Source: an uncultured Candidatus Saccharibacteria bacterium
GTDB lineage: Bacteria > Patescibacteriota > Minisyncoccia > Phycocordibacterales > UBA9973
DNA length: 58,720 nucleotides
Direction of reading: 5' to 3'
Assembly: GCA_964611515.1 (NCBI GenBank)
Contig: CAZTAH010000001.1
Span: forward strand, 1-58,720
Of the stretch, positions 32,441-54,686 are shown piece after piece. The number at the start of each line of letters is the position of its first letter. Position 1 is the stretch's first letter. The notes under the pieces were generated by a model that saw nothing but the letters and a program-made list of their open reading frames with translations, did no database searches and was not told where the DNA came from. The position numbers and the translations under genes are program-made.

Positions 32441-32477
32441 AGTCCTATCTTAGCAAAAAAGGCTTGAAAACAAAAGG

Positions 32478-34169: not shown

Positions 34170-34176
34170 TTATTTT

Positions 34177-36585
34177 TTAATTTTCTTCTTGTAAAGGAGG
34201 CTTGATTGCTTCCAGTTCTGATTTTATTACCTCTGTTTGCTCTTCCTCTTCCCCTGTTTCTCCTAATCCTTCTTCTTCCTCTTTCTCAGTCTCTGATGAC
34301 TTAACTCCTAGAGACTTAATTGCATTTTTAACCTCTTGGTTATCAGGAGCCACTTCCTTGAGAAGATTAAATTGAACTAAGGCATCGTCATTTTTACCCA
34401 TTTTCTGATAAGATAGCCCTAAGTAGTAATGAGCATTTAAATAAGAACTATTCTGTATGGCTGCCTTTTCTATTGCTGCTATAAATGACTCACTGGCCTC
34501 TTTGTAGTCTTCTTTGTTGTATCTTAATAATCCCAGCCTAAAGTAAACAGTTGGGTCCTCTGGCGACACCTGACTTGCGTATTCAGCTTGGTTTATTGCT
34601 TCTTCTAAGTTTCCTTCTGTTGTTTCTAGTTGAGCCAATAAGAATATCGCGTCTGTATAATTAGCCTTAAGGTCTAAAGCTTGCTTAATGTATTTTCTAG
34701 CCTCACTATTATTTTCATTTAAGTACTCAAGACTTGCTTTGGCTAGAAACACAGAAGGATTGTTGGGTGCGTAAATTAAAGCCTTATCATAGGCCATTGT
34801 TGCATTTTCATAACTTCCCTCTACAGGAATTAAAGATAACTCTGTATATATGTTCCCGAGGTTCATATAGTTTTGATAATACTTCGGATTTTGATCTATT
34901 GCCCCAGAAGCAGCAGTAACTAAATTGCTTATTAACTGCTCCAAACTAGTCTTTAGTGTGCTCTCTGATATGGAAGAATCTTGAATTAAGACCCCCATTT
35001 GAGCTAAATAAACCTGGGAGAGAGCTCTGTAGTAAACATCGTTTCTATCTAAGTTAATAGCTCTTAATAACATTGTTTCTGACCTAGCCAAAGACTCTAG
35101 GTTTTCTTCTACTTCTATGCCTCTTGAGTAGTAAATCAAAGAAGTGAATTTCTCTACATAAATATAAGTGAGAGAGATAGAAGCTACCATTAACACCACT
35201 AATCCCAGAATAGAGAAAAAACTGTTCCTAGGGTCTTCTAAGAATGAATATTCTTTTCTTTTGATTGCCTGCTTATAAGCAAGTATACCTATAAGCATCC
35301 CACTAGTCATAAAAGCTAACATCAACATTACAATATTAGGGTTATACAATATTACCGAAATCCAAGAGTATAAAGATAGGACCAATGTGGTAATTATGAA
35401 ATAATTAGAGGCATTTCTTTGTAGGGCCATCTTTATAGACTGAACACTTCTTACTGCATATAGAACCAAAAACCACAATAAGGCTACAAGCCCAAACAAG
35501 CCAACAGTAACTGCAAAAGTTGACAATAAGCTATACCCACTAGAGAAATCTATTCCCCAAAAAACAGTTTGGGCTAACTCCTTTGGTTGCCAAAGAGACC
35601 AATCTAAAGCAAATGTATTAGGCCCTGTTCCAAAAGCAGGATTATGCTTAAAAGACCGGAGGGCCAGCTGAGCAGTAGTAGCAAAAGAAGGCCTAATATC
35701 TGGGTTGTTAAAAACTATTTTATTAGAAATTAAGTCTACAAATAAACTATTACCAACTAAGGAGATAAAAGCAATGAACACTACAAGTAAAGACACGAAA
35801 GGAAACTTCCTTATGGGCTTAGCTTTTTCTGCTGTACTGCTAGCTGAGTGCTGAATAGATAAACTGTAAACAAATACTACTAAGGAAAAAACTCCAACCA
35901 AGACCCAGACTAATTGCATATTAACTATTATTAAGAAAAATAAACCAAGGGCTAATAGTAAATATGGTATAAACTTAAAAATCTTTTTAAACCCAGCTAG
36001 CTCTAAAGAGATAATGGACAACAGGACAATAGCGCCAACCATTAAAGCAAAGTTATTCCAACTTCCAACCAAGTTCCCTGAGGTCAAACCCTGAACCAAT
36101 TCTGGAAACCTCTGATTAAAATTAATAAAAAGATCTAGGCTTTGATACAATAAAACTATTGCCCCGGACAAGAAAAGAGACCAGATTAAGTAGTAATTTT
36201 TTCTATCTGACTGAAAATAACAAGCAGAAAGGAAAAAAACAATATACATAATAAGCATAGAGCCAAATGTTCCTACTTCAAATCCACTGCCAAATAAAGA
36301 CAAGCGCAGAGAAGAAGAAAAGAAAGAGGAGAGCAAGAAAACGAGAGGAATGGCCCCGGCAAATAATATTAGCTTATCCTTGGGGATAACAAACTTCCCT
36401 TCTCCCAACCTGGCTATAAACCAAAAAAATAGGGATAGGGTTGCTCCTACTGACAAAAGAAAACCCTTGCTTGCTTCTATGGTCACAGGAGAAAAAGGAA
36501 TAAAGAAGAAAACGCTAACTACAATAGTGAATAATAAAGTTATAAACGAAAGCTTATTAAAGAAATTAATTTTTTTTGACTCCAT
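34177..36585 (-). CDS. O-antigen ligase-like (Wzy_C) polytopic protein with C-terminal TPR repeats
   Basis: 802 aa with more than 10 TM helices. KHNPAFGTGPNTF loop motif, then TPR-like repeats and an acidic tail. Confidence 0.7.
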   Translation of the reverse strand: MESKKINFFNKLSFITLLFTIVVSVFFFIPFSPVTIEASKGFLLSVGATLSLFFWFIARLGEGKFVIPKDKLILFAGAIPLVFLLSSFFSSSLRLSLFGSGFEVGTFGSMLIMYIVFFLSACYFQSDRKNYYLIWSLFLSGAIVLLYQSLDLFINFNQRFPELVQGLTSGNLVGSWNNFALMVGAIVLLSIISLELAGFKKIFKFIPYLLLALGLFFLIIVNMQLVWVLVGVFSLVVFVYSLSIQHSASSTAEKAKPIRKFPFVSLLVVFIAFISLVGNSLFVDLISNKIVFNNPDIRPSFATTAQLALRSFKHNPAFGTGPNTFALDWSLWQPKELAQTVFWGIDFSSGYSLLSTFAVTVGLFGLVALLWFLVLYAVRSVQSIKMALQRNASNYFIITTLVLSLYSWISVILYNPNIVMLMLAFMTSGMLIGILAYKQAIKRKEYSFLEDPRNSFFSILGLVVLMVASISLTYIYVEKFTSLIYYSRGIEVEENLESLARSETMLLRAINLDRNDVYYRALSQVYLAQMGVLIQDSSISESTLKTSLEQLISNLVTAASGAIDQNPKYYQNYMNLGNIYTELSLIPVEGSYENATMAYDKALIYAPNNPSVFLAKASLEYLNENNSEARKYIKQALDLKANYTDAIFLLAQLETTEGNLEEAINQAEYASQVSPEDPTVYFRLGLLRYNKEDYKEASESFIAAIEKAAIQNSSYLNAHYYLGLSYQKMGKNDDALVQFNLLKEVAPDNQEVKNAIKSLGVKSSETEKEEEEGLGETGEEEEQTEVIKSELEAIKPPLQEEN

Positions 36586-36639
36586 TTTATTTGTTTTTTT
36601 AAATTACCAAAAACGACTTTTTATTTTTTTACACATAAA

Positions 36640-39222
36640 CTATACCACGATATTAATAATCTTGCCAGGTATGTAAATAAATCTTTTTATTTCCTTTTCC
36701 CCTATCCATTTTTTTACATTAGGAGTAGAGACAACAACATTTTTAATATCTCTTTCGTCCATGTTTTTGTCCACCTCTATCTCATCTCTTACTTTTCCGT
36801 TTACTTGTATGGCTATCCTTATCATGTCTTCTTCTAATAATTTTTCATCCCAAGATGGCCAAAAAGACTGTGTGATAGAATTTTTCTCTCCTAAGAAAGA
36901 CCAGAGTTCTTCTGTTAAATGAGGAGCAAAAGGACTTAGTATCTTTAAGAAATCCTTAAAGTCTTCTTTTCTCATCTCTTTTTCTTTATCTAACTCATTT
37001 ATAAATATCATCATGGATGAAACAGCTGTATTAAATGAAAAGCTTTCTATGTCTTGATCTGTTTTCTTTATAGTTTTATGTAACAAGGATTTCAGTTTTT
37101 GACTAGTCTCTCCGTCTTCTTTTTCTATTATTCCTAAGCCTATTCGCCAGACTTTTTCAAGAAAACGACGAGAACCAATAATGCTTTCAGTTGACCAAGG
37201 AAGCATTTGATCAAAAGGACCCATGAACATTGTGTAAACCCTTAAAGTATCTGCTCCGTATGTCTTAATGATGTCATCTGGGTTTACTACATTGCCCCAT
37301 CTTTTACTCATTTTTCTATTATCAGAACCAAGAATCATTCCTTGGTTTTTCATTTTTTTAAAAGGCTCATTAAACGGTAGGTGCCCTAAATCATATAATA
37401 AATTAGTCCAAAACCTAGAATACAATAAGTGTCCAGTTGAGTGTTCTTGACCCCCAATATACATATCAACTTGATTCCAGTACTCTAAACTCTTCTTGCT
37501 AGCAAAATCTTTGTTGTTTTTTGGATCCATGTATCTCAAGAAATACCAAGAAGACCCTGCCCATCCTGGCATAGTGTTTGTTTCATATCCTTTTTTTACC
37601 CAAGAAGAAACTAATGATAAAGGAGACTCCCCTGTTCCTGAAGGAGAATAAGACTTAATACTCGGTAGCTTGAGAGGCAAATCTTCTTCTTTTAGAGCAG
37701 TTATTGTTTGGTCTTTATTATGAATTAATGGGATTGGCTCACCCCAATATCTCTGTCTAGCAAAAATTGCATCTCTCATTTTATATTTAACTACTTCTTT
37801 TCCTAACCCTTTATACTCTAGCTCTTCAATGATTTCAAGCATTGCATCTTGGCTTAACAGGCCATTAGCCCAGGACATTTCTTCGCTATTAATAACAATT
37901 CCGTAATCAGTATATGGTTTATCTTTTGGATAGTCTTTTGGGTATTCTATTACAACTTTAATTGGTAATTTATATTTATTTGCAAAATCCCAATCTCTTT
38001 CATCATGAGCTGGAACAGCCATAACAGCCCCTGTTCCATAAGAAACTAAAACATAATCTGCAATCCAAACTGGAACTTCTTCTTTATTAGCTGGATTAAT
38101 AGCCATTATTCCTTTTAGACAAATTCCGTTTTTTTCCTTACTGACAGAAGTTCTCTCTTCTTCTGTTTTGTTTTTTACCATATCCCTAAATCTTTCTACC
38201 TCTTTCCAGTTTGAAATTTTATTTTTTAGCTCATCTACTAGCTTGTGTTCTGGGGATAAAACAACATAAGTAGCACCAAACAAAGTATCCGCCCTCGTAG
38301 TAAATACTTTTATTTTTAAATCACTATCTTTAATTAGAAAATCTATCTCTGCTCCCTCTGAGCGACCTATCCAGTTTCTTTGTATTTCTTTAATGTGATC
38401 ACTCCAGTCTAATTCCTCTAGATTATCTAGCAACCGATCTGCATAAGCTGTAATTCTCATAAACCATTGTCTCATTAGCTTCTTCTCCACTGGATGATGA
38501 CCTCTTTCAGATATTAAGTTTCCATTTTTATCATTTATAATTTCATCATTTGCTAATACAGTTCCTAGCTTCGGGCACCAATTTACCTCACTATGTCCCT
38601 CATAAGCCAAACGATATTTCATTAAAATATTCTCTTTTTCCTTTCGAGAAAATTTATTCCAATCTGTAGCTGAAAAAAGATAATCAATATCAGTGTGAGC
38701 GCTTAATTCTTCATTTCCATTTTTTGAAAAGATTTCTTCTAGCTCTTTTATTGGGCGAGCTTTATCTTCTAATAAATCAAACCAAGAATTATATATCTTT
38801 AGAAAAATCCACTGAGTCCATTTATAATAACTTGGATCTGTGGTGTTTACTTCTCTGTCCCAATCGTAAGAAAGCCCTATCATTGAAAGCTGTTTCTTAA
38901 AAGTTGCTATGTTCTCCTTGACTGCTTTTTCTGGGTGAATATTATGCTCTAGTGCATATTGCTCTGCAGGTAAACCAAAAGCATCATACCCCATAGGATG
39001 AAGAACATTAAAGCCCTCCATTCTTTTTTTTCTTGCATAAACATCACTCCCTATGTATCCGCGTGGGTGACCAACATGAAGCCCAGAACCAGAAGGATAA
39101 GGAAACATATCTAAGACATATTTTTTTGGCTTATCAAAATCAGTGGGTGTTTTATATGTTTTTTTATTCTCCCACTCTTTTTGCCATTTTTTTTCTATTT
39201 TTAAGTGTTGGTACTCTTTCAT
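36640..39222 (-). CDS. leuS: leucine--tRNA ligase
   Basis: Has PYPSGSGLHVGH, the CP1 editing domain and KMSKRWGN. Confidence 0.95.
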   Translation of the reverse strand: MKEYQHLKIEKKWQKEWENKKTYKTPTDFDKPKKYVLDMFPYPSGSGLHVGHPRGYIGSDVYARKKRMEGFNVLHPMGYDAFGLPAEQYALEHNIHPEKAVKENIATFKKQLSMIGLSYDWDREVNTTDPSYYKWTQWIFLKIYNSWFDLLEDKARPIKELEEIFSKNGNEELSAHTDIDYLFSATDWNKFSRKEKENILMKYRLAYEGHSEVNWCPKLGTVLANDEIINDKNGNLISERGHHPVEKKLMRQWFMRITAYADRLLDNLEELDWSDHIKEIQRNWIGRSEGAEIDFLIKDSDLKIKVFTTRADTLFGATYVVLSPEHKLVDELKNKISNWKEVERFRDMVKNKTEEERTSVSKEKNGICLKGIMAINPANKEEVPVWIADYVLVSYGTGAVMAVPAHDERDWDFANKYKLPIKVVIEYPKDYPKDKPYTDYGIVINSEEMSWANGLLSQDAMLEIIEELEYKGLGKEVVKYKMRDAIFARQRYWGEPIPLIHNKDQTITALKEEDLPLKLPSIKSYSPSGTGESPLSLVSSWVKKGYETNTMPGWAGSSWYFLRYMDPKNNKDFASKKSLEYWNQVDMYIGGQEHSTGHLLYSRFWTNLLYDLGHLPFNEPFKKMKNQGMILGSDNRKMSKRWGNVVNPDDIIKTYGADTLRVYTMFMGPFDQMLPWSTESIIGSRRFLEKVWRIGLGIIEKEDGETSQKLKSLLHKTIKKTDQDIESFSFNTAVSSMMIFINELDKEKEMRKEDFKDFLKILSPFAPHLTEELWSFLGEKNSITQSFWPSWDEKLLEEDMIRIAIQVNGKVRDEIEVDKNMDERDIKNVVVSTPNVKKWIGEKEIKRFIYIPGKIINIVV

Positions 39223-39346
39223 AATTTATTAAATGTAACCCTTATATTATAACAAAAAACCAGTTATAAAGGGAAAATTATCGTTAGTAAGAGCCTGAGA
39301 GCTTGGTATCAAAAACAGGCAATAGTTAGAATCGTTGGGTTCAAGA

Positions 39347-40456
39347 TTAGATTTTGAACTCAATGACATCCCCATCTTTAACTATATACTCCTTTCCTTC
39401 TGTTCTTATTTTTCCCCTAGCCCTAGCTTCCGCATAGCCCCCAGCTTGCAATAATTCTTTCCAGTTTATAATCTCCGCTCTAATAAATTTATCATGAAAA
39501 TCTGAATGGATAGCGAAACCCGCCACAGGAGCCGTACTTCCTTTTTTTATAGTCCAAGCCCTAGTTTCATCTGGGCCTGTTGTAAAAAAGGTTTCCAGTC
39601 CCAACAACTCATAGCTCTCTTTAATTAATTTATCTATTCCATCATCCTCTCCTCCCATTTCTTTTCTAAAAAGCTCTTTTTCTTCACCCTCAAACTCTTT
39701 TAATTCCTCTTCTATTTTGGCATCTATTAATACAAAAGAAGAGCCTATTCCTTTTATGTAATTTATAACCTGATTAAATAATTCTGGATTTGTTTCATCT
39801 AAGTTCCCCCCTCCTCCTCTTTTGTTTAATCCAAATATAAATGGCTTCATTGTTAATAAGTTTAGTGTTTTGATGTAGGTTAATTCTTTTTCTATAAAAT
39901 CTATAGTGTTGGCCATCTTGCCTTCATTAAAAGACTTTTCTAATTTCAATAAAATTTGATTTTCAAAAATAGACTCTTTTTCTCCTTTTTTTATATTTCT
40001 GATCAAGCTCTCTTTTCTTTTTAAGACTGTGTCTAGATCTGCTAAAATTAACTCTGAATTAATTATCTCTATGTCTCTTAGGGGGTCCACTTCTCCGTAA
40101 ATATGAACCACTTCATTCTCTTTACTCGCCTTAACTGGAAATATTCTAACTATTTCTAGTATGGCATCTACTTCTCTGATGTTTGCTAAAAACTTATTTC
40201 CTAACCCCTCCCCCTTAGAAGCACCTTTTACTAGTCCAGCTATATCAACAAACTCAATAACAGCTGGTATTGTTTTAATTGACTTTGAGAATTCTGATAA
40301 TTTAAGCAACCGAATGTCTGGAACTGGAACTATCCCTACTGATGGATCTATTGTGCAAAAAGGATAATTATCAGAAGGAACACCTTTTTTAGTTAAGGCG
40401 TTAAAGAGAGTGCTTTTCCCAACATTCGGCAATCCAACTATTCCAATTTTTAACAT
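39347..40456 (-). CDS. ychF: ribosome-binding ATPase YchF
   Basis: Has GIVGLPNVGKSTLFNALT, the coiled-coil insert and the C-terminal TGS-like domain. Confidence 0.95.
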   Translation of the reverse strand: MLKIGIVGLPNVGKSTLFNALTKKGVPSDNYPFCTIDPSVGIVPVPDIRLLKLSEFSKSIKTIPAVIEFVDIAGLVKGASKGEGLGNKFLANIREVDAILEIVRIFPVKASKENEVVHIYGEVDPLRDIEIINSELILADLDTVLKRKESLIRNIKKGEKESIFENQILLKLEKSFNEGKMANTIDFIEKELTYIKTLNLLTMKPFIFGLNKRGGGGNLDETNPELFNQVINYIKGIGSSFVLIDAKIEEELKEFEGEEKELFRKEMGGEDDGIDKLIKESYELLGLETFFTTGPDETRAWTIKKGSTAPVAGFAIHSDFHDKFIRAEIINWKELLQAGGYAEARARGKIRTEGKEYIVKDGDVIEFKI

Positions 40457-40497
40457 AAGATCAAATGTAGCATAAATTGAAGTTCAAGAAAAGAAGA

Positions 40498-41034
40498 CTA
40501 CTTGGCTATCCTTACGGTCTTTATAGCATCTATCTGTTTTGTCTGAGCTTCAAATATAATATCCTTAACCCGAATTGGGTTCCTTATTCCTCTCATTATA
40601 AATTCATTGTCTGTTCCAGCTGATTGAACCTTTATGTCCCCTATTCTCAAAATAGTATTGATTGCTCCCTTGGTCACTATGCTGACATCTTGTATTTTGT
40701 CTAACCTTAAAATAGAAACCTCTCTGGAGAAAAACCCTTTCTGATCTACACTTATAAGCCTCTTATTCGTTAAGATCCAAATATCTAAATAGTAATTAGT
40801 CCAAGCATAAAAAGCTATTGTCCAAAAAATAGAAATAAATACCAAATAGAGAAAAACTAATAAACTAAATAAGCCAGTCCCTTTTTCTGCCTTGATTAAA
40901 TCCGTGAAAAGAAAAAGAATGAGGGGTAAAATAGCAAAGACTCCTAATAAAAATATCTCAAAAATAATATAAAAACTATGCTTCTTAAAGGTATTTAATA
41001 CTTTTTCCTCTGTGTCTAAAATTTTCATATTCAA
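40498..41034 (-). CDS. membrane protein with bacterial PH (bPH_2/YdbT-like) domain
   Basis: Two TM helices, then W.LTN.RLI....G.FSR......L..IQD. Confidence 0.6.
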   Translation of the reverse strand: MNMKILDTEEKVLNTFKKHSFYIIFEIFLLGVFAILPLILFLFTDLIKAEKGTGLFSLLVFLYLVFISIFWTIAFYAWTNYYLDIWILTNKRLISVDQKGFFSREVSILRLDKIQDVSIVTKGAINTILRIGDIKVQSAGTDNEFIMRGIRNPIRVKDIIFEAQTKQIDAIKTVRIAK

Positions 41035-41312
41035 TAAAGATAGTTGATAAGAAAAGATCCCGAGAAATATAAGAGCAAAATAGTTCCCCCTATGTAGATG
41101 AACCTAGCAACTACTATAGTGGGGCTATAGGCTCTGTATCTATGCCAATGATAAAGAAGTGTTGTAGAGTAAATTAAAAATGCCACAAGAAAAATAATAT
41201 AAAAAATTGACCAGACATGGTTGGGAATTGATAAAATAAAATTGGAAAGATTTATTTCATTAAAAATATTTGTATACCCTAAATTATTTAAAGTGTCTGG
41301 ATAATATTCCAT
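41031..41312 (-). CDS. small membrane protein
   Basis: 93 aa with two TM helices. 4-nt overlap with the downstream gene. Confidence 0.4.
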   Translation of the reverse strand: MEYYPDTLNNLGYTNIFNEINLSNFILSIPNHVWSIFYIIFLVAFLIYSTTLLYHWHRYRAYSPTIVVARFIYIGGTILLLYFSGSFLINYLY

Positions 41313-41317
41313 TGTTT

Positions 41318-41620
41318 TTATTTTTGCATTAGTTGTATTAGTGGCTCAAGTTCTTCTCTGTGTTTCATTATTTCATTTTTGTATTTACTCATCACTAAGA
41401 CCCCAGCATACTGCTCATCTAATCCTTCTTTTTTCTTTTTTTCTATTTCTTTAGTAATTTTCTCAAATAACTCTTTGACTTCTTTGTTTTTATCTAAGCC
41501 TTTAATGCTATCCATTATCTCTGGGTTGTCGTCTATTTTTTTAGCGATCTCATCTGCTTGCTTGGCAGAAACCCCTTTTAGCCTTAGGGCCTTTTTAGTT
41601 ATAAATGATTTAAATCCCAT
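41318..41620 (-). CDS. hypothetical helical protein
   Basis: 100 aa, K/E-rich; no recognisable family. Confidence 0.4.
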   Translation of the reverse strand: MGFKSFITKKALRLKGVSAKQADEIAKKIDDNPEIMDSIKGLDKNKEVKELFEKITKEIEKKKKEGLDEQYAGVLVMSKYKNEIMKHREELEPLIQLMQK

Positions 41621-41695
41621 TTCTATTTTTTAGTATTTTAAAATTCTAATAGCTAAATTATAGCAAAAAAAGAATTTTTGTGCGAATATGAATAG

Positions 41696-42634
41696 GTGAA
41701 AGAAAAAGAAAAAATTATTGTTATCTTAGGACAAACTGCTACTGGAAAAAGTGATTTTGCAGTAGAAATTGCCAAAGAGTTTAATGGGGAGATTGTTTCT
41801 GCAGACTCAAGACAGGTTTACAAAGGAATGAACTTAGGGACTGGGAAAATAACTAAAAAAGAAATTAAGGGTGTCCCCCATTATTTACTAGATATTGTTT
41901 CTCCTAAAAGTAAAACATTTTCAGTTGTTGATTTTCAGAAATTAGCCCAGAAAAAGATAGAGAAAATTTTATCAAGAAATAAAATTCCTATAATCTGTGG
42001 CGGAACTGGATATTACATAGACTCTATTCTTAATAACATCATCTTTCCTAAGGTGCCTCCTAATAAAGAGCTAAGAAAAGAGCTTTCACTCAAAACTCCT
42101 GATGAAATTTTTAACATTCTAAAAAAACTAGATAAAAAAAGAGCAGATGAAATTGATAAAAATAATACCGTGAGAATCATTAGAGCCATTGAAATTGCTC
42201 AAGCTCTTGGAAAAGTTCCTATTTTGAAAAAAAATAAAACAAAATATCAGTTTGTAAAAATTGGATTAGAGTTTCCTGATGATGAATTAAAAGAAAGAAT
42301 TAAAATTAGGCTTAAAAAAAGAATTAAATTAGGAATGATAGAGGAAGTCAGAAGACTAAAAGAGAAAGGTGTTTCTTGGAAAAAATTATATTCATTTGGG
42401 CTGGAATATAGATTTGTTTCTGGTTATTTAAGAAGAACAAAAAACCTGCCTTCTTCAGAACTAAAAAAAGAAAAAGAAAAGATGGAAGAAGAATTATTTT
42501 CAGCTATTTGGAATTTTGCAAAAAGACAAAAAACTTGGTTTAAAAGAGATAAAGAGATAATATGGATAAATCCTAGCAAAAAGAAAGAAGTAGCTATCGC
42601 TAAAAGTAAGGTTAAGGATTTTTTGAAAAAATAG
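41696..42634 (+). CDS. miaA: tRNA dimethylallyltransferase
   Basis: GTG start. Has GQTATGKSD, SADSRQVYKGM..GT.K, PHYLLD and GGTGYY. Confidence 0.9.
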   Translation: MKEKEKIIVILGQTATGKSDFAVEIAKEFNGEIVSADSRQVYKGMNLGTGKITKKEIKGVPHYLLDIVSPKSKTFSVVDFQKLAQKKIEKILSRNKIPIICGGTGYYIDSILNNIIFPKVPPNKELRKELSLKTPDEIFNILKKLDKKRADEIDKNNTVRIIRAIEIAQALGKVPILKKNKTKYQFVKIGLEFPDDELKERIKIRLKKRIKLGMIEEVRRLKEKGVSWKKLYSFGLEYRFVSGYLRRTKNLPSSELKKEKEKMEEELFSAIWNFAKRQKTWFKRDKEIIWINPSKKKEVAIAKSKVKDFLKK

Positions 42635-42660
42635 ATTTTTTAATGTATACTGTTTTTTGT

Positions 42661-42731
42661 GGGCGATTAGTTTAGTGGTAGAACAGCGGTCTCCAAAACC
42701 GTTAGCGGGAGTTCGATTCTTCCATCGCCCG
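42661..42731 (+). tRNA. tRNA-Trp(CCA)
   Basis: Acceptor GGGCGAT/ATCGCCC, discriminator G. Anticodon arm GCGGT-CTCCAAA-ACCGT. T-loop TTCGATT. Confidence 0.9.
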
Positions 42732-42745
42732 CAACAAAATAATGA

Positions 42746-42777
42746 ACCCAGTGTGGAGCACTGGGTGATTATATTTT
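42746..42777 (+). terminator. terminator after tRNA-Trp
   Basis: ACCCAGTG tggag CACTGGGT followed by a T-rich tail. Confidence 0.7.
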
Positions 42778-42798
42778 GTGGGAGATGGAAGACTCGAA
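42777..42798 (-). repeat. inverted Trp-like tRNA 3'-end copy
   Basis: Minus sense TTCGAGTCTTCCATCTCCCACA matches the tRNA-Trp end TTCGATTCTTCCATCGCCCGCA at 19 of 22 positions. Confidence 0.7.
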
Positions 42799-42803
42799 CC
42801 GAT

Positions 42804-42938
42804 CCCCACAAACCCATATTTCCATTGCTTTTTGTGGCTAGCTAAAATCTCTTCAGAACAAGAGCTGAAGATCTTTTTTTAATTAAACAAAACTTTCTAA
42901 TAATAAAAAAGCTAGGGGATAGAAATATAGGTGTGGGG
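42804..42938 (+). repeat. MITE-like element, copy 3
   Basis: Runs from CCCCACAAACCCATATTTCCAT.. to ..ATAGAAATATAGGTGTGGGG. Confidence 0.8.
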
Positions 42939-43040
42939 CTTGTCCCGAGTAGCTTTAGCGAAGTGGGAATTTATCTCACAAGCTCATGTTTCCTTCAGTG
43001 CTCCAAGTACTTGTTGCTTTACTTAGAGTATTAGCTAATT

Positions 43041-43078
43041 GGTGTAACAAGACTGACGGCCGTCAACTTCGTTACCCC
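43041..43078. repeat. REP-like palindrome copy d
   Basis: GGTGTAACAAGACTGACGGCCGTCAACTTCGTTACCCC. Confidence 0.8.
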
Positions 43079-43085
43079 TTAAAAT

Positions 43086-43110
43086 AAAAAATCCTCAATT
43101 GAGGATTTTT
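43086..43110 (-). terminator. rpmG terminator (bidirectional shape)
   Basis: AAAAATCCTC aatt GAGGATTTTT. Confidence 0.8.
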
Positions 43111-43271
43111 TATTTTTTAAGCTCCTTGTGCAGTGTTCTTTTCCTGCACCATTTACAAAACTTATTAAGCTCAATCTTTCTAGTGACGAGTTTTTTGTTC
43201 TTGCTTGTCCAGTAATTAACACGATTACATTCGCTACAAGCTAATTTAAAAAGTCTATCCTGTGATGACAT
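43110..43271 (-). CDS. rpmG: 50S ribosomal protein L33
   Basis: Hand-translated 53 aa: MSSQDRLFKLACSECNRVNYWTSKNKKLVTRKIELNKFCKWCRKRTLHKELKK. CxxC..CxxC L33 pattern. Below the ORF-track length cutoff. Confidence 0.85.
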   Translation of the reverse strand: MSSQDRLFKLACSECNRVNYWTSKNKKLVTRKIELNKFCKWCRKRTLHKELKK

Positions 43272-43400
43272 AATGAAATATACTACTATAATTTAATTAT
43301 AAAAGCAATAATATGATTTTTTAGAGTTATTTGATATACTAGAACTTGAAAATATTTAATTAATGAATAAATAGAAAAATTCGGAGTATATTTTTCATTT

Positions 43401-43482
43401 GCCGGAGTGGCGGAATTGGTATACGCGCGCGACTCAAAATCGCGTCTCGCAAGAGTTGTGGGTTCAAGTCCCACCTCCGGCA
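43401..43482 (+). tRNA. tRNA-Leu(CAA)
   Basis: Acceptor GCCGGAG/CTCCGGC. Anticodon arm CGCGA-CTCAAAA-TCGCG. Long variable arm. T arm GTGGG-TTCAAGT-CCCAC. Confidence 0.9.
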
Positions 43483-44250
43483 CAAAGCGAAGCTTTGGGC
43501 AAAAACTAAGTGATGGGGTTATCACTTGGTTTTTAGGTGGTGGGACTTGAAAGCCGGAGCGCGACGGCGCGAGGCGGGGTCGCGGAAATTTTTAGTAAAA
43601 AATTATCTGTGACCAAGTCCCACCTCCGGCACAAAGCGAAGCTTTGGGCAAAAACTAAGTGATGGGGTTATCACTTGGTTTTTAGGTGGTGGGACTTGAA
43701 AGCCGGAGCGCGACGGCGCGAGGCGGGGTCGCGGAAATTTTTAGTAAAAAATTATCTGTGACCAAGTCCCACCTCCGGCACAAAGCGAAGCTTTGGGCAA
43801 AAACTAAGTGATGGGGTTATCACTTGGTTTTTAGGTGGTGGGACTTGAAAGCCGGAGCGCGACGGCGCGAGGCGGGGTCGCGGACTTTTTCAGCAGAAAA
43901 AGATCTGTGACCAAGTCCCACCTCCGGCACAAAATGAAGTTTTGGGTAAAAACTAAGTGATGGGGTTATCACTTGGTTTTTAGGTGGTGGGACTTGAAAG
44001 CCGGAGCGCGACGGCGCGAGGCGGGGTCGCGGAAATTTTTAGTAAAAAATTATCTGTGACCAAGTCCCACCTCCGGCACAAAATGAAGTTTTGGGTAAAA
44101 ACTAAGTGATGGGGTTATCACTTGGTTTTTAGGTGGTGGGACTTGAAAGCCGGAGCGCGACGGCGCGAGGCGGGGTCGCGGAAATTTTTAGTAAAAAATT
44201 ATCTGTGACCAAGTCCCACCTCCGGCACAAAATGAAGTTTTGGGTAAAAA
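43465..44250 (+). repeat. 149-bp tandem array (5.3 copies), Leu-linked tRNA-trailer family
   Basis: Unit starts at 43465, 43614, 43763, 43912, 44061 and 44210. Each carries CAAGTCCCACCTCCGGCACA, the last 20 nt of the tRNA-Leu gene region. Confidence 0.95.
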
Positions 44251-44263
44251 AGAAACGATATTG

Positions 44264-44851
44264 CTATGTCTGTTGATTAATCTTTTCTACTGCCTTTAGT
44301 ATTTTTTTAAAATCTTTCATTAAGACTTCTCTCATTGCCCCATTGTATAAAGCAGCTGCGGGATGATAGATAGGCATAAAGTAAAGTTTTTCCTCAAATT
44401 CTGGAATTTTCCTAATTAATAATTTCCCATGAACTTCAGATATTTTAGCTTCTGGAAAAAACCTGAGCATGGAATGTTTTCCTAATAGAACTATTAATTT
44501 TGGAGATATTATCTTGAGCTCACCGATAAGCCAATCATTGCAGTCTTCCTTCTCTTTTATTTCTGGGTCCCTGTTTGATGGGGGGCGATATTTAACAATG
44601 TTCGTAATATAAACATCTTTTCTTTCTAGTCCTACAGAATTTAATAATTCTGATAAAAACTTTCCAGCTGAGCCAACAAAAGGAATCCCCTCTTCGTCTT
44701 CTTTTTTTCCAGGGGCTTCTCCTATAAAGACGATTTGACTATTTGGGTTACCGTTTCCAAAAACAGCTTGAGTGGCTGTTTTTTTTAAACTACACTCACA
44801 GTTTTCTTTCCAATAACTATTAAGCTCGCCTAGTTTTTGCTTTTTGCTCAT
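44264..44851 (-). CDS. uracil-DNA glycosylase, family 4
   Basis: Has GEAPGKKEDEEGIPFVGSAG..L and C-terminal HPAA. Confidence 0.85.
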   Translation of the reverse strand: MSKKQKLGELNSYWKENCECSLKKTATQAVFGNGNPNSQIVFIGEAPGKKEDEEGIPFVGSAGKFLSELLNSVGLERKDVYITNIVKYRPPSNRDPEIKEKEDCNDWLIGELKIISPKLIVLLGKHSMLRFFPEAKISEVHGKLLIRKIPEFEEKLYFMPIYHPAAALYNGAMREVLMKDFKKILKAVEKINQQT

Positions 44852-44878
44852 AGCTCTTTTATTTTAGCAAAAAAAAAC

Positions 44879-46345
44879 TTATTCCACTAAATCAAAATCA
44901 TTTATATCAATTTTTCCTTCTGAGTCCTTTTTCTTCAATAAGAACACACTGGTAATTCCTAGAAAAATAATTACCCCCAGTCCAACTATTGGATAAATTA
45001 TTTTTGTTTTTTCTGCATCTCCCACACTAGCGCTTAATAAATTTAGATTTATCGGACCCTCTTCTTCAAAAAGATTAAGATTCTCAAGAATACTTTCTCC
45101 TTCATCAAGAACCTCCAAGGGCTCACTTCCTTCTTCTTTGTTTTCTATTATTTTTTCTACAACTAAATCTTCTATTTTTGTTTTTGGGGTTATTTGCACA
45201 GTAGGTACCGTCGTTTTTAATTCAACAGAATTAGCAAGAGAGATGTATGATGAGTTAATAGCAAAATTTGGGCTAGAAATTACTATTTTTGACAAATCTT
45301 GTCCTGTAAAGTTAGTGATTTTAGGAGAAATTTTAATTTTATTATTAGCAGAAATAATCATTCCGTCTGGTAGTGTAAAACTTCTACTCCCTCCCCTTAT
45401 GGTCCAACCAGACAAAGAAACATCATGATTTGTTCTATTCTCTATTTCTACATAAGGATCTTGTTGGTCGCCAACAGAACTAATGACAATTTCAGCGGGA
45501 ATCACCTTAATTTTAAGCGTTACACTTGAATCTGGTAGTTCTATGAATAAATTATTGTAATACGATAAAGACAACAGATAATCACCTGGGTACTCATAAG
45601 TATACTCAAATGGCTTATTGTCTTTTAGAACAAAAGAGCGACCATCTCCAAAATTCCAAACAAACTTACCAACATAATATGTTCCTCCTTTATTAGAAAC
45701 TGTTTCTGATCCTAGGGTAAAAGGAACTCCTGCCATTATTGTTTTTGGAATAATAATCCTAGAGTTTATCTTTGCGAAACCAGCATCCTCTTTCTTTTTC
45801 TCACTCTCCTCTTCTTCCCACTCCTCCACCTCATCATTTACATCCTGAGTATTCGCTTTCCTTGGCGTCGGAACACCTATTATCCAACCTCCATTTGTCC
45901 TGTTGATACTCCTTCCCTCTGGAGGATTTGCTACTGAAGATCCTGGCACATCTCCCCAGGCTATAATATCTTCTATTTCCTGGCTAGAACTTTTTAATTG
46001 GATAGTATTAGACTCGGTTAAAGTCAAATTATCCATTATGATATCGGCTTGATTAAAATTAGTTCTAGAGATAACAAAAAAGCTATTGGGTGGTATGCTC
46101 TTGTTTTCAAAATAAGTCTTAGAAACAAGAGATCCAAAGTTTTCTGCTGTAGCTGTTTTTCTTTGTATATACCAACCAGTCAAACTAACTGCATTTGGTC
46201 CAGAGTTGTATAATTCAATAAATCGCTCCTCTGTTGGTTTTATTTGAATCTCATTAATATAAACATCTGCCTCTGCTAAACTAGTAAAAAAGAGGGAAAA
46301 TAAAAAAAACAAAATACCTCCCAATAAAAACCTTATTGTTTTCAT
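44879..46345 (-). CDS. surface protein with two lamin-tail (LTD) domains, PKD-like module and C-terminal TM anchor
   Basis: Signal peptide. VYINEI......ERFIELYN.....SLTGW and DPYVEIEN.....VSLSGW motifs, plus WNFGDG. Confidence 0.65.
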   Translation of the reverse strand: MKTIRFLLGGILFFLFSLFFTSLAEADVYINEIQIKPTEERFIELYNSGPNAVSLTGWYIQRKTATAENFGSLVSKTYFENKSIPPNSFFVISRTNFNQADIIMDNLTLTESNTIQLKSSSQEIEDIIAWGDVPGSSVANPPEGRSINRTNGGWIIGVPTPRKANTQDVNDEVEEWEEEESEKKKEDAGFAKINSRIIIPKTIMAGVPFTLGSETVSNKGGTYYVGKFVWNFGDGRSFVLKDNKPFEYTYEYPGDYLLSLSYYNNLFIELPDSSVTLKIKVIPAEIVISSVGDQQDPYVEIENRTNHDVSLSGWTIRGGSRSFTLPDGMIISANNKIKISPKITNFTGQDLSKIVISSPNFAINSSYISLANSVELKTTVPTVQITPKTKIEDLVVEKIIENKEEGSEPLEVLDEGESILENLNLFEEEGPINLNLLSASVGDAEKTKIIYPIVGLGVIIFLGITSVFLLKKKDSEGKIDINDFDLVE

Positions 46346-46350
46346 TTGTC

Positions 46351-48411
46351 TTATTCTAAAATTTTACGCAAAACTTCCTCTGGGACCTCCCTTTTGGCTC
46401 TAGGTTTTTGCCAAGAGGCATCTGTTTCTTTCTTAGAATTATTATTAATAATATTAATATCTTCTTTTTCCGCTTTCTTTAGAGAACTACCAGGGGTGCT
46501 ATCTGTCTTTTGGCTATTTGGTAAAATCTTGTCTTTTGAGACGATATCTGGTTCTTTTTTTTCTGTTTCCCTTTCCTTCTTGGGTCCTGATTTCTCTCTG
46601 TCTCTGCTTGGAGCTTTCCCGTAAATAATTCCTGATCTAGCGATACTGTTAAGCAAGTCGCCCCTACTCTCTTCGCTAATCTCTTTAGTCGGCCTATCAT
46701 CTTTATTTTTTTTCTTTGTCCCACTCTTTAGCTCACTCAAAGATATAGCTTCTGTTTGTTTTTTTGCTTTAACTTTTTTTACCTCTTTGATAGTTCCCTT
46801 TTCTTCTTCTTCTTTTATTTTTTCTAATAATTCTTTTAGCCCTAATTTCTCTGGTGTCCTTGGCGAACTACTTGATTCTTTATTATTCTCCGTATACTTA
46901 ACTGTTTTTTCTCTTTCTATTTTTTTCTGACTAGCAGAAGAAGCATTTCTTTTGTCTGGCGTACTTATTTTTCCTTCTCTTGCTTTAGCTAGACAGTCCT
47001 GACAGTAGACAGGGCGACCTTTTTCTGGTTTAAAGGGAACAAAAAATGGCTTATTGCAATTTGTGCACTCTGCCTTATGTTTTTTTTCTTGCTTAGAGAC
47101 CTGCAGGGTATTACTCCATTCATCTATCTCTCTTTCTACATCCTCTCTTCTTTTTGTATAAAGCTCTCTAGAGCACTCTATAATTCTATCCTTAATTCCT
47201 TTAGTAGGGTCTACTTTCATTGGGGGTAAGGTTATAGCAGAAAAAGGACGACTAGTGACTCCGTCTATCATTAATTTTAAGTAGATATGGTAATTTGGTA
47301 AATTAACTAAATCCTGAGCAGTAAATTCTGGACTAAATTCTTTTTCTAGAAAGTCTGCGTCATCAGCTCCTACTCTAAAAATTATCATTGTCCCAACGTT
47401 GCCAAAAACTGCATCTTTCACCTTGTTGTTTTCAGCATTAGTTAATTGAGCGGTATATTGATGAGCTACAATTAAGTTCAGCCTGTATTTTCTTGCTTCT
47501 GATAAAATATCAGCAAAAGAATCAGTGGCAAAGTTTTGAAATTCATCCACATATAAATAAAAATCTCTCCTTCTGTCTTCTGGTATTCTTACTCTTTCCA
47601 TGGCTGCTAATTGTATTTTGGTAATTATCATTCCACCCAAAAGAGCAGAGTTATCCTCCCCTATTCTTCCCTTTGCGACATTAACCAGAAATATCTTTCC
47701 CTCATTCATAATGTCAAAAACATTTATAGTGGACTCAGCTTGGCCTACCACATTTCTGATGATTGAAGAAGATAAAAATTGTCCTACCTTGTTTTGAATT
47801 GGGGCAATTGCTTCATTTCTAAACTGGTCTCTCCATTGCTCATATTCATTGGTCCAAAAAGATTTAACGACTGGGTCCTTTAGATTACTAATAACCATTT
47901 GACGGTAATCTTTGTCTACTAGTAAGCGAGGAATTCCAAGAAGAGTAGAGTCTGGTGTGTCTAATAGGGCCAAGATGGTATTATTTAGAATATATTCCAT
48001 TCTAGCGCTCCAAGCATTAGCCCATATCTTAGTAAATATACCCATTAAACCAGAAGCAACTAAATGCTTGTGCTTGGGATCATTTATCTGTATTACATTA
48101 AATCCTATATGATGATCCCTGTCTGCTGGATTAAAATAAACAACATCTTTTGCCCTTTCTTCTGGGATAAAATTCAATATCTCTTCTACTAATTCTCCAT
48201 GTGGATCAACAACACAAACTCCTTCTCCGTTTTTTATATTTTGAATTATTAAATTAGACAATAGAACAGATTTACCTGTTCCTGATTTTCCCAATACATA
48301 CATATGCTGACGACGGTCTTTTCTCTTTATTCCAAAAACTGTATTAGAGTTACGAAAATCTGTTTTCGCAAAATAAGTGACTTCTTTATTTATAGGAATT
48401 TCATTATCCAT
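46351..48411 (-). CDS. TraD/VirD4-like (T4SS coupling protein family) P-loop ATPase with CxxC..CxxC zinc ribbon and long K/E/S-rich tail
   Basis: Walker A GKSGTGKS, Walker B YLYVDEFQ, ARKYRLNLIVAHQY. Zinc ribbon CTNCNKPFFVPFKPEKGRPVYCQDC. Confidence 0.7.
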   Translation of the reverse strand: MDNEIPINKEVTYFAKTDFRNSNTVFGIKRKDRRQHMYVLGKSGTGKSVLLSNLIIQNIKNGEGVCVVDPHGELVEEILNFIPEERAKDVVYFNPADRDHHIGFNVIQINDPKHKHLVASGLMGIFTKIWANAWSARMEYILNNTILALLDTPDSTLLGIPRLLVDKDYRQMVISNLKDPVVKSFWTNEYEQWRDQFRNEAIAPIQNKVGQFLSSSIIRNVVGQAESTINVFDIMNEGKIFLVNVAKGRIGEDNSALLGGMIITKIQLAAMERVRIPEDRRRDFYLYVDEFQNFATDSFADILSEARKYRLNLIVAHQYTAQLTNAENNKVKDAVFGNVGTMIIFRVGADDADFLEKEFSPEFTAQDLVNLPNYHIYLKLMIDGVTSRPFSAITLPPMKVDPTKGIKDRIIECSRELYTKRREDVEREIDEWSNTLQVSKQEKKHKAECTNCNKPFFVPFKPEKGRPVYCQDCLAKAREGKISTPDKRNASSASQKKIEREKTVKYTENNKESSSSPRTPEKLGLKELLEKIKEEEEKGTIKEVKKVKAKKQTEAISLSELKSGTKKKNKDDRPTKEISEESRGDLLNSIARSGIIYGKAPSRDREKSGPKKERETEKKEPDIVSKDKILPNSQKTDSTPGSSLKKAEKEDINIINNNSKKETDASWQKPRAKREVPEEVLRKILE

Positions 48412-48551
48412 AATCTGTTTCTATTATACATCTTTCAAGTTAAATATAAAAATAAGAAATATATTTATATCTCGTTTTCTTGTAAAAAACAGAAAAATGA
48501 GTTAATATAATTAGGATCATTTGAAATTATTTCAAATTATTTTTAAATTCT

Positions 48552-48624
48552 GGGCCCTTAGCTTAGTTGGTAGAGCGCCTCATTTGCAATGAGGAGGTCA
48601 TCGGTTCAAATCCGATAGGGTCCA
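48552..48624 (+). tRNA. tRNA-Ala(TGC)
   Basis: Acceptor GGGCCCT/AGGGTCC with G3:U70. Anticodon arm CCTCA-TTTGCAA-TGAGG. Confidence 0.9.
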
Positions 48625-48637
48625 CTAGAAAACATTA

Positions 48638-48660
48638 AATAGCACATAAGTGCTATTTTT
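48638..48660 (+). terminator. terminator after tRNA-Ala(TGC)
   Basis: AATAGCAC ataa GTGCTATT followed by a T run. Confidence 0.7.
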
Positions 48661-48686
48661 AATTTTAGAAAACATAAATTCTTCTC

Positions 48687-48715
48687 TTGACAGAAACTAT
48701 TTTATATACTATAAT
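48687..48715 (+). promoter_or_regulatory. consensus sigma70 promoter TTGACA-17-TATAAT
   Basis: Exact consensus hexamers with a 17-nt spacer. Confidence 0.65.
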
Positions 48716-48779
48716 TAAAGAGAGTCAGGAGAAAACCGAAAATCCTAAAAAGAGTAGGTGCTATTTAAAAAAACAAGAG

Positions 48780-49013
48780 ATGGCAGATGGATTTGTTAAA
48801 AACTTCAGATCCGGTGTAAGATTTACTGAAAGATTTTTTAAAAATCTTAAGATACAGACAAAGTGTATTATTAAAACCAGTAAACAAATATATACCTGGA
48901 TGAAAACAAGAAAATCAAACCCGCTGCCTATTTTTTGTGGCCTAGTTGTTTTCTTGTTTATTTGTATAGCTATTATACCAATTATATTTTGGGTAATAGT
49001 TAAATCAATATAA
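48780..49013 (+). CDS. hypothetical protein with C-terminal TM segment
   Basis: 77 aa from the ATG. The track's TTG start at 48687 is the -35 box of the promoter. Confidence 0.35.
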   Translation: MADGFVKNFRSGVRFTERFFKNLKIQTKCIIKTSKQIYTWMKTRKSNPLPIFCGLVVFLFICIAIIPIIFWVIVKSI

Positions 49014-49070
49014 CATTAGGAGAAAGCCGAAAATCCTTAAAAGAGTAGGCAAAATTAAAAATTTAAAAAA

Positions 49071-49277
49071 ATGGAAAAAATCCATGAACTCGCCTTCAAG
49101 GCGCTCCTTGAAAAATTTAGGGAGGATGGTCTGTGGCTCAGGCCTAAGACTATCAAAAGAGACCTTCACAACTTCTCAAAGAAGTTAGGAGTGGAACCAT
49201 CCCAAGCAAAGGAGTTGTTCCGGGAGATTATTCAAACTCTTCATTGTGAAGTAATGAGGGAAATTGAAGGTGTCTAG
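49071..49277 (+). CDS. hypothetical small helical protein
   Basis: 68-aa ORF preceded by the same 32-nt leader motif as the previous ORF. Confidence 0.35.
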   Translation: MEKIHELAFKALLEKFREDGLWLRPKTIKRDLHNFSKKLGVEPSQAKELFREIIQTLHCEVMREIEGV

Positions 49278-49376
49278 GTGGCAGGGTTGAGTTTAAAAAA
49301 ACTCAGTAAAAGGGTAATTCCGATTTCAGTATTTTAAGAAATCCGAGAACAAGAACCTATCCCCCCACAATTTGCA

Positions 49377-49402
49377 AGCCCCATCCCCTGTGGGGCTTTT
49401 TT
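49377..49402 (+). terminator. rho-independent terminator
   Basis: AGCCCCA tcccctg TGGGGCT followed by T6. Confidence 0.75.
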
Positions 49403-49453
49403 ATTTCCTAATAATCCTGGAAGATTAATTAAATAAAATAGGACAAAAATATC

Positions 49454-49525
49454 AGGCCATCAGCTCAATTTGGTAAAATATTCCCACGACATGGAAGAAA
49501 CGGACTGCTCAAGATCCGGTATAAT
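49454..49525 (+). pseudogene. decayed tRNA-Ala-like pseudo-tRNA
   Basis: Aligns with tRNA-Ala(GGC) at 50156 and about 35 nt of its upstream flank (roughly three quarters identical by eye). Acceptor, anticodon and T stems are disrupted. Confidence 0.55.
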
Positions 49526-49632
49526 TAACAATTTTATAAATAAATAAACCCCTATCATGACTAATAGGGGCCTTGTTTTCTCTTGGCAACGCCAATCCCT
49601 GAAGAGAAGTCAGGGTATGAATGTAGTTACAA

Positions 49633-49953
49633 CTAGCAAACCTTGATTAACGGATGATACCCAGATTCCTTGATGCCCATAATTTTTCTTTCCGTCTTGG
49701 TCAGAGTTTTCCTTACTGTGTCCATCGGCTTTATGGGTTTTCCATTAAAAATCCTTGTAGAGACAAGAAACCTCCTTTTGTCTATGCTTATTTCTTCTAT
49801 AACAGAAGAAACTTTGTCTATGCTTATTACCCTGAAGTAATAATCAGGAAGATCTTTAGAGTCAAAGATAACTGTTTCATTTTTTTTGAATATTCCAACT
49901 AAATATCCACTTAAAAGGGAAATAAAAGTTACAACTAAAATTACAAAAATCAT
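49633..49953 (-). CDS. hypothetical membrane-anchored protein
   Basis: 106 aa with an N-terminal TM segment; no recognisable family. Confidence 0.35.
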   Translation of the reverse strand: MIFVILVVTFISLLSGYLVGIFKKNETVIFDSKDLPDYYFRVISIDKVSSVIEEISIDKRRFLVSTRIFNGKPIKPMDTVRKTLTKTERKIMGIKESGYHPLIKVC

Positions 49954-50155
49954 AGTGCATAATTTTTTAGAAACAATAACAGGTCTGGCAAAGATTTAAA
50001 AAAATATTTACTTTTCTTGTAACTGTCTCTGGGTTAGAAAATAGGAATTCAAGTATGACCTTATCATGCTTTTTTAATTATATCAAGGAGCTATTAATAA
50101 TCAGTAATCGGGCTATAGTTGGCAAGATTAATTAAATAAGATAGAATAAAAATAT

Positions 50156-50228
50156 TGGGCCATTAGCTCATTTGGTAGAGCGTTCCCATGGCATGGGAGA
50201 GGCGACCGGTTCAAATCCGGTATGGTCC
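50156..50228 (+). tRNA. tRNA-Ala(GGC)
   Basis: Acceptor GGGCCAT/ATGGTCC with G3:U70. Anticodon arm TTCCC-ATGGCAT-GGGAG. T arm ACCGG-TTCAAAT-CCGGT. Confidence 0.9.
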
Positions 50229-50342
50229 ACAATTATTCCTTGATTTATTTAGGAAAAGATCTAAAATACAAATGTAAAAGAAAAACCATCTTTTGTTGTG
50301 TTTATTAATAATTAGTTTAGGTAGACATAAAATTTAAAAAAC

Positions 50343-50891: not shown

Positions 50892-50933
50892 AAAATCTTA
50901 TTTTTAAATAATTACAATATTCTCTTGGATTTT

Positions 50934-51962: not shown

Positions 51963-51977
51963 CTATTTAAAATTAAA

Positions 51978-52829: not shown

Positions 52830-52932
52830 GTTTACATTATACCCCTATTTCAAATTTTTAGAAACACTTAATATACCTTGTCAAAGATCAAGATTTTTGT
52901 TTCTTGATTCTGCTGAGAAATTATTATTTTAA

Positions 52933-52941
52933 TGATATAAT
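52933..52941 (+). promoter_or_regulatory. extended -10 element TGATATAAT
   Basis: Lies 13 nt before ATG 52955. No good -35 box. Confidence 0.35.
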
Positions 52942-52954
52942 TAACTTATATAAA

Positions 52955-53242: not shown

Positions 53243-53257
53243 AGCTAGAAAAAGATA

Positions 53258-53286
53258 TTGACGAAATAATCCTTCTCTAGTAAAAT
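53258..53286 (+). promoter_or_regulatory. promoter-like TTGACG-17-TAAAAT
   Basis: Lies after the stop of the previous CDS and about 45 nt before a terminator. Confidence 0.4.
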
Positions 53287-54671: not shown

Positions 54672-54686
54672 AAATGGTTTCCGAGA

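Follow-up and report, generated by a model that had tools for sequence, protein, structure and literature searches.

The ~135-bp repeat at 42,804–42,938 probably is, or was, mobile non-autonomous DNA, a MITE-type element restricted to one lineage; we put the probability of this reading at about 0.7. The window, by which we mean the whole 58,720-nt stretch of DNA analysed, holds five copies and belongs to a genome (G000) of 496,864 bp in 37 contigs, with 33% G+C and 99% completeness. The genes of this genome are bacterial, including those for MiaA, DivIC and aminoacyl-tRNA synthetases, and close MiaA homologues carry the label Candidatus Paceibacterota. A first-pass annotation of the window had suggested a non-autonomous mobile element, and at the level of the family this is supported by 6-bp duplications and by the presence or absence of elements at the same sites in sister species.

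Patescibacteria are held to be extremely streamlined, yet about 5% of the 0.5-Mb G000 is short repeated DNA (~4.9%, clustered between genes and at contig ends). Elements with terminal inverted repeats and target duplications persist and diversify in small genomes in which no transposase of the tested families resides, and the literature that we searched contains no description of such elements in Patescibacteria. The family offers a case of mobile DNA put to use, as likely tRNA terminators predicted from sequence and, within an essential ribozyme, as an expansion segment. In practical terms, the repeats break assemblies, with many contig ends of G000 lying inside them, and lower the detection of RNase P RNA.

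Copies in the window and across the genome

The five ~135-bp copies picked out in the first-pass annotation lie where it had placed them to within 1–2 nt. Their alignment spans ~135 columns with a mean column identity of 84%, and each copy scores 128–134 bits against a profile built from the five. The copies and their parts are:

11275..11410, + strand: copy 1, 312 nt 3′ of tRNA-Glu(ctc) and co-oriented with it
27989..28034, no strand assigned: short form of 46 bp, located in the tRNA-Phe trailer and bearing the same feet (CCCCACA...GTGGGG)
29719..29853, − strand: copy 2, immediately preceded by a 14-nt tRNA-Gly(ccc) 3′ end that is displaced from its gene
29854..29868, − strand: displaced tRNA-Gly(ccc) 3′-end copy, tctcgctacccgca plus c, abutting copy 2
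42804..42938, + strand: copy 3, the focal copy, 71 nt 3′ of tRNA-Trp and co-oriented with it
42804..42835, + strand: 5′ arm of copy 3, CCCCACAAACCCATATTTCCATTGCTTTTTGT, pairing with 42907–42938
42850..42880, + strand: internal terminator-like hairpin of copy 3, TCTTCAG-N8-CTGAAGA and then TCTTTTTTT
42907..42938, + strand: 3′ arm of copy 3, AAAAAGCTAGGGGATAGAAATATAGGTGTGGGG
57891/2..58025/6, − strand: copy 4, of a subfamily without the foot bulge, 3′ of 125-bp arrays with a tRNA-Thr(tgt)-type 3′ end
58253..58385, − strand: copy 5, of the subfamily without the foot bulge

The 46-bp mini version and the 14-nt tRNA-Gly 3′ end abutting the element at 29,854, both pointed out earlier, are present; the latter tract (29,854–29,868) is part of a tRNA-trailer element and not of the 135-bp repeat. 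The small internal hairpin is confirmed too, and a T-run comes after it. Terminal inverted repeats are likewise present; the predicted pairing is imperfect and covers ~25 bp (25 pairs between the two arms). The focal copy folds better than its shuffles (z of −2.9 as RNA and −2.5 as DNA), and within the arms of G000 copies a single compensatory pair is seen. In most copies of this genome the 5′ foot is interrupted by a bulge of 2 nt (CCCCAC-RA-ACC), which is missing from the copies at 57,891 and 58,253 and from a copy in the RNase P RNA gene (see below). On contig C32, a tRNA end, CCCGCA, acts as a foot, and the far foot reads TGTGCGG, giving a compensated pair (CCGCACA/TGTGCGG).

The feet are not exclusive to the 135-bp repeat. 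CCCCACACC...GGTGTGGGG is common to many repeat units of G000, the 9-mer CCCCACACC occurs 39 times against 0.46 expected, and several subfamilies of 40–46-bp hairpins have the same feet around different self-complementary interiors. A reading of the 9-mer feet as DNA-uptake sequences was set aside; they nearly always form inverted pairs and occur at ~0.08 per kb. As a separate observation, tandem 52-bp, half-decayed foot hairpins joined by GGCCTGT linkers lie at C7:100–360 and are reminiscent of a BIME-like mosaic.

The count of five holds for the window but not for the genome, in which the five-copy profile finds 26 matches that correspond to ~19 loci, ~14 of them full length. Copies are 133–140 bp long; none lies in a credible gene, and all are intergenic at the ~19 loci. 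A dispersed structured RNA gene, the other possibility raised at the outset, finds no support: the interior is unconserved between species, the arms show a single compensatory pair within G000, and Rfam has no family that the element matches at the gathering score (a chance hit of 16.6 bits, E = 2, was all that appeared), which rules out identity with any of its curated covariance models.

The copies of G000 are associated with the ends of genes. They lie 3′ of, and co-oriented with, tRNA-Glu, tRNA-Gly(ccc), tRNA-Trp, tRNA-Asp, tRNA-Ile, tRNA-Lys, tRNA-Gly(tcc), as well as an ORF of contig C7. Of 11 loci that could be decided, ~10 have an upstream neighbour in the same orientation, and the copy on C17 is the only one in a divergent spacer. 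Arrays of 125 bp (58,099–58,712) that bear a tRNA-Thr(tgt) 3′ end precede the last two copies of the window. The gene of this tRNA opens contig C4 (within C4:1–111), and the window contig and C4 probably join there.

This setting raises the question of whether the 135-bp unit in G000 is immobile by itself, a passenger module of trailers that target tRNA 3′ ends or of larger duplicated segments. Three like trailers (those of tRNA-Trp, tRNA-Asp and a tRNA-Ser(gga)-like arm), each made up of a hairpin, an antisense tRNA arm and GAT, end in ...cgaaccGAT and pass at once into a foot hairpin, as a joint module would; the hairpin that follows GAT differs, however, being the 135-bp form behind tRNA-Trp and a 40-bp form behind tRNA-Asp. 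The copies at C1:11275 (copy 1 of the window) and C18:6918–7053 have both flanks in common, which identifies this pair as a segmental duplicate, but most copies have sharp boundaries at the feet, with unrelated sequence directly beyond them on at least one side. Likewise, a tRNA-Gly 3′ end, either real or displaced, adjoins two of the copies without a gap and duplications are missing from G000, whereas other copies lie away from tRNA genes, on C7, on C17 and inside RNase P RNA. Among relatives the family is unlinked to tRNA genes, with one within 300 bp at 1 of 40 element loci, so that the tRNA link is local to G000. Passenger carriage is in our judgement unlikely.

A tyrosine integrase as the source of the tRNA-end copies was also considered and dropped, since PF00589 has no match in G000. 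Two further features of the tRNA genes were noted in passing: two DUF805b RNA motifs (RF02914; 44.7 and 52 bits) lie at 48,726–48,760 and 49,017–49,051, just 3′ of tRNA-Ala(tgc), and ARAGORN reports a tRNA with a four-base anticodon (aacc) in an 8-nt anticodon loop at C5:16891–16968.

Target duplications and polymorphic sites in related species

The 18-mer and 22-mer of the 5′ arm are absent from 40 relatives and give only four chance hits among 185,579 species representatives (one genome each). A species-specific element is nonetheless ruled out by foot patterns and by the profile, both of which reveal diverged homologues across the genus, and the apparent specificity is an artefact of an over-strict pattern. 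Short forms (feet with a 20–50-nt interior) occur in 17 of 93 genus genomes, against none with a reversed-pattern control, and long forms (feet with a 100–130-nt interior) in 17 of 93, at 1–8 per genome. The members fall into size classes of 36–66 bp and 124–139 bp, all with CCCCACACC...GGTGTGGGG ends; their interiors are palindromic yet unrelated between members. Relatives' long forms align with the G000 profile from position 2 to position 135, the best E-value being 8e-10. When 400 genomes spread evenly over the phylum (~320 genera) were sampled, short forms turned up in G000 and in a single genome from a sister genus within its family, and not outside this family. JGI metagenome contigs contain one true copy, on the short contig L023, as the counterpart of the truncated copy at C14:471–578.

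The flanks of the relatives' long forms are in keeping with insertion. Across 41 long forms from 18 genomes, the six bases on one side match those on the other at 4.24 of 6 positions, compared with 2.46 when partners are shuffled; not one shuffle in 10,000 scores as high, and sliding the right flank by 1–3 nt reduces the matches to 2.0, 1.6 and 1.3. The repeats vary from copy to copy (ATAAAT, GCTTGC, GAAAAC, GTTTTC, ATTTAC, ATTTGT and others), conform loosely to RYTTRC, and look like a 6-bp target-site duplication with a target preference. The proposal to look for target duplications succeeded in the relatives' long forms but not around the 135-bp copies of G000, which have no flanking duplication (0.82 of 6 matches); there, later tRNA-trailer elements, segmental duplication and nested insertions have probably replaced the original flanks.

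Presence/absence polymorphism between species is found at two sites, upstream of rpsL and in the P16/P17 arm of RNase P RNA. The former, in the promoter region, is empty at ~24 of 34 loci in the genus, with a single GCTTGC-like hexamer whose shared core is CTTGC (variants ACTTGC, GGTTGC and TATTGC). Filled sites have a 40–45-bp hairpin or a 130–150-bp long form between two copies of GCTTGC, with at least five unrelated interiors among them; the site is filled in G041 and G020 and empty in G000. We also observe that GCTTGC in the rpsL promoter is an insertion hot spot, filled in at least ten species (L110–L139, L051–L056), and that G060 has two elements there in tandem.

Empty sites could thus be recovered for relatives, as had been hoped, but not for the copies of G000. 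Logan contigs from six runs carry the same junction of tRNA-Trp and copy 3, reach this copy and end there; contigs with an identical or 97%-identical MiaA all end inside or before the element, and are uninformative on empty sites. The related contig L023 keeps its copy and provides no within-species polymorphism. What the genome-wide count and the comparison between species do give is further copies and polymorphic sites, and not copies confined to orthologous positions, the pattern that the first-pass annotation had associated with conserved regulatory DNA.

A related reading is that nothing moved, and that a functional hairpin (a terminator, an RNA-processing site or a protein-binding site) is kept by selection at fixed intergenic positions. 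The rpsL-upstream hairpin does recur at the same place in several species, where the feet of orthologous copies change together (CCCCACAC/GTGTGTGGG in G101 and CCGCACAC/GTGTGCGG in G090), but the same site is empty in most species and harbours unrelated members in those in which it is filled. The compensated feet of the C32 copy, which show the same double change as separates the G101 and G090 copies, and the orientation bias with a terminator-like interior would also fit selection on a hairpin. Fixed positions agree poorly with flanking repeats that vary between copies yet match within each one, with up to 8 strict long-form and up to 30 single-foot matches per genome at non-homologous places, and with the absence of an Rfam family, and we regard this reading as highly improbable.

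Mobile DNA of the MITE type accounts for these observations better. The family has the size, inverted ends, copy number and site polymorphism of bacterial MITEs (surveyed in PMC11602168) and, in relatives, their target duplication. An autonomous element or a transposase with the same ends was not found in the genomes and families searched. Correia elements (CREE) of Neisseria are bacterial MITEs that also have no known parent. The likeness extends to a size of ~100–150 bp, terminal inverted repeats of 25–30 bp, tens of non-coding intergenic copies, a long hairpin, no matching transposase in the genome, the capacity to supply transcription signals and duplications, the last seen here in relatives. 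Unlike Correia elements, our family duplicates 6 bp (RYTTRC-like) and not TA, conserves only the 9-bp feet and the pairing of the arms over sizes of 36 to 139 bp, lacks duplications around its copies in G000, and is limited to a single patescibacterial family, whose genomes measure 0.5–0.9 Mb. ERIC/IRU sequences are 127-bp imperfect palindromes of Enterobacteria with copies largely at fixed positions. They resemble the present element in size, in imperfect palindromy and in their place in transcribed intergenic regions, but have no sequence relation to it, and our family shows duplications and site polymorphism.

The search for a mobilising enzyme

The first-pass annotation had found no transposase in the window. 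This extends to the whole of G000 for six Pfam families, PF00589 (Phage_integrase), PF07282 (TnpB), PF01609 (DDE_Tnp_1), PF00665 (rve), PF13358 (DDE_3) and PF00078 (RVT_1), none of which has a match, but not to Y1 transposases, since one Y1_Tnp-like gene lies on another contig. In five element-rich relatives, PF01609 is absent and PF00665 has one hit, in G090, on a contig of 45% GC without feet. A full-length parent with the same termini, which had been suggested as a target of the search, was not found in the nearly closed genomes G041 (one contig) and G020 (four contigs): neither has pairs of feet 0.7–3 kb apart, and feet occur there only as close pairs or singly, so no such parent is resident. 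IMG/VR likewise contains no phage-borne parent, with two chance single feet as the only matches. As a side observation, no recombinase of the Phage_integrase family (Xer-type) was detected in the 99%-complete G000.

The Y1 gene offers another route, in which a REP/REPIN-type element would be moved as folded single-stranded DNA by a resident Y1 (HUH) protein resembling RAYT, leaving no target duplication. The copies of G000 are free of duplications, as this predicts, but the 6-bp duplications of the relatives, which vary from copy to copy, are not a product of HUH peel-and-paste. The only Y1_Tnp-like ORF of G000 (C16:2493–3269; 258 aa) adjoins rplK and belongs to a protein family that 75 of the 93 genomes of the genus encode, some with as many as 10 paralogues; its HUH motif nevertheless reads RFH, and although it scores 25 against a cut-off of 23 for Pfam Y1_Tnp, its 23.5 bits for NF047646, the REP transposase model of NCBIfam, fall far short of the 80 required, so the curated RAYT model is not attained.

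The palindromes around these genes also speak to this route. Nearly all of 40 Y1 genes surveyed in the genus are bracketed by an inverted pair of palindromes with an apical core, AGGnC-nnn-GnCCT, and a variable base, and in G020 and G080 the pair is TACCCCACAGGC-CTT-GCCTGTGGGGTA, which shares the heptamer CCCCACA with our element. The bracketing palindromes are of a different class, however: 3 of 40 contain CCCCAC or GTGGGG and the other 37 are other palindromes, with a conserved core and a variable base, the opposite of the way in which the foot family is built. In G000, neither CCCCAC nor GTGGGG occurs within 1.5 kb of the Y1 gene, and the palindrome that fits the Y1-bracketing class is CACAGGACGGTCCTGTG, present 21 times (for example, at 27,905–27,940 of the window). 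We note in addition that CTAGGACGGTCCTAG is a relative of CACAGGACGGTCCTGTG, and that the Y1 gene of G000 is not flanked by CACAGGACGGTCCTGTG.

The RAYT-like gene, promising at first as a candidate mobiliser, was thus weakened by the survey of 40 genes; the different class of palindrome and the relatives' duplications make Y1 an unlikely mobiliser, and we give little credence to the reading as a whole. Hairpin repeats in BIME-like mosaics remain a point in its favour, and the comparison with REP, BIME and REPIN sequences and with RAYT (TnpA-REP) (PMC3116915, PMC3337134, PMC6006769) brings out further likenesses: palindromic units in mosaic arrays with short linkers, compensatory changes in stems, a single Y1/HUH gene in G000, and Y1 genes of relatives bracketed by inverted palindromes. 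In contrast to those systems, relatives show target duplications, the palindromes around Y1 are of another class, and there is no conserved head of the GTAG or CGTC type. A resemblance to integron attC sites lies in short conserved boundary motifs around a palindromic interior of highly variable length and sequence, but G000 has no tyrosine recombinase, R and L boxes and cassette ORFs are absent, and relatives have target duplications.

We therefore return to MITE-type movement, which we picture as follows. The element is mobile DNA that codes for nothing, forms hairpins and consists of 9-bp feet, arms of 20–30 bp and a freely varying AT-rich interior. In sister species its insertion duplicates a 6-bp RYTTRC-like target, as seen for GCTTGC or GTTTAC, and an enzyme supplied in trans would make the staggered cut; renewed hits on the same target yield the tandem mosaics joined by short linkers. 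The family came to occupy ~19 loci in the 0.5-Mb G000. The surviving copies there lie nearly all in non-coding tRNA-gene trailers and at gene ends, with hairpin and T-run on the transcribed strand, those in other orientations or places presumably having been lost; this orientation may have been retained because the element acts as a Rho-independent terminator or 3′ stabiliser. One old copy turned into the P16/P17 arm of RNase P RNA, where it is now free of the terminator-like hairpin and shows near-perfect pairing.

Terminator-like interiors and a copy inside RNase P RNA

A consensus scan flags 42,850–42,871 plus TCTTTTTTT of the focal copy as terminator-like. All 13 G000 copies examined have a stem-loop and T-run on the strand co-oriented with the upstream gene, with stem sequences that vary among them and G·U pairs on the forward strand only; the summed hairpin ΔG is −103 kcal/mol forward, compared with −78.5 kcal/mol for the complement. 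Behind tRNA-Asp, a diverged copy likewise combines a hairpin with a T-run, this hairpin being GC-rich and of unrelated sequence. The architecture of a Rho-independent terminator (stem-loop, T-run and co-oriented upstream gene) is found at ~10 of 11 loci, and the retained copies may serve as intrinsic terminators or 3′ stabilisers in G000, a role predicted from sequence. In relatives, a terminator-like interior hairpin is present in 19 of 41 long forms, on either strand; with these 19 of 41 hairpins and the few tRNA links there, the predicted role is tied to one subfamily of shared ancestry.

The RNase P copy (C19:8684–8819) shares its flanks, gtgcaagatcgt.. and ..gaatcgcttgag, with L156, L166 and L177, which are the outliers without a duplication among the relatives' long forms. 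Rfam places the copies of G088 and G058 inside bacterial RNase P class A RNA (104.7 and 82 bits), exactly at the P16/P17 arm. Of 30 RNase P loci taken from the genus, 20 have a readable arm; in 19 this is an ordinary short hairpin between GCAAGAYCGT and GARTCGCTTGAG, without feet, and in G080 it is the element, indicating that the element replaced the native P16/P17 arm in a subset of species. The insertion is directly visible in G000, G058 and G088, recognized by the 3′ foot in G080 and judged by flanks in G092. In G000, the gene lies on the minus strand of C19 (~9175–8540) and is ~640 nt long with several expansions; its landmarks appear in the order GAGGAAAGTCCGAAC, P15 flanks, CTAGATAAAT and ACAGAATTCGGCTTA, and the Rfam covariance model detects it only in pieces.

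In this 136-bp copy there is no terminator-like hairpin (−1.9 kcal/mol), and pairing extends over its whole length (−43.9 kcal/mol), which fits a segment that needs read-through transcription. It takes the place of the native hairpin without any duplication, an outcome that plain cut-and-paste does not predict. One could suppose that the hairpins are moved by machinery outside the transposase families tested, perhaps even with the transcribed RNase P copy as a long-lived master that renews the dispersed copies of each genome. Across six element-bearing genomes, two of them nearly closed, we find no parent and, save for the one rve hit, no DDE transposase of a tested family, yet the elements produce 6-bp duplications and can substitute exactly for a hairpin already in place. 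We consider this reading as a whole rather improbable.

Vioque is said to have described, in 1997, that in heterocystous cyanobacteria STRR repeats lie within the gene for RNase P RNA. There too a genomic repeat is tolerated as a helix extension of RNase P RNA; our case differs in affecting the P16/P17 arm rather than P12, and in that the repeat is a hairpin element, not a tandem heptamer. Near its 3′ end, the G000 RNase P gene contains a second hairpin, CCACATGAGATAAT...ATTATCTCATGTGG, which is AT-rich and ~70 nt long.
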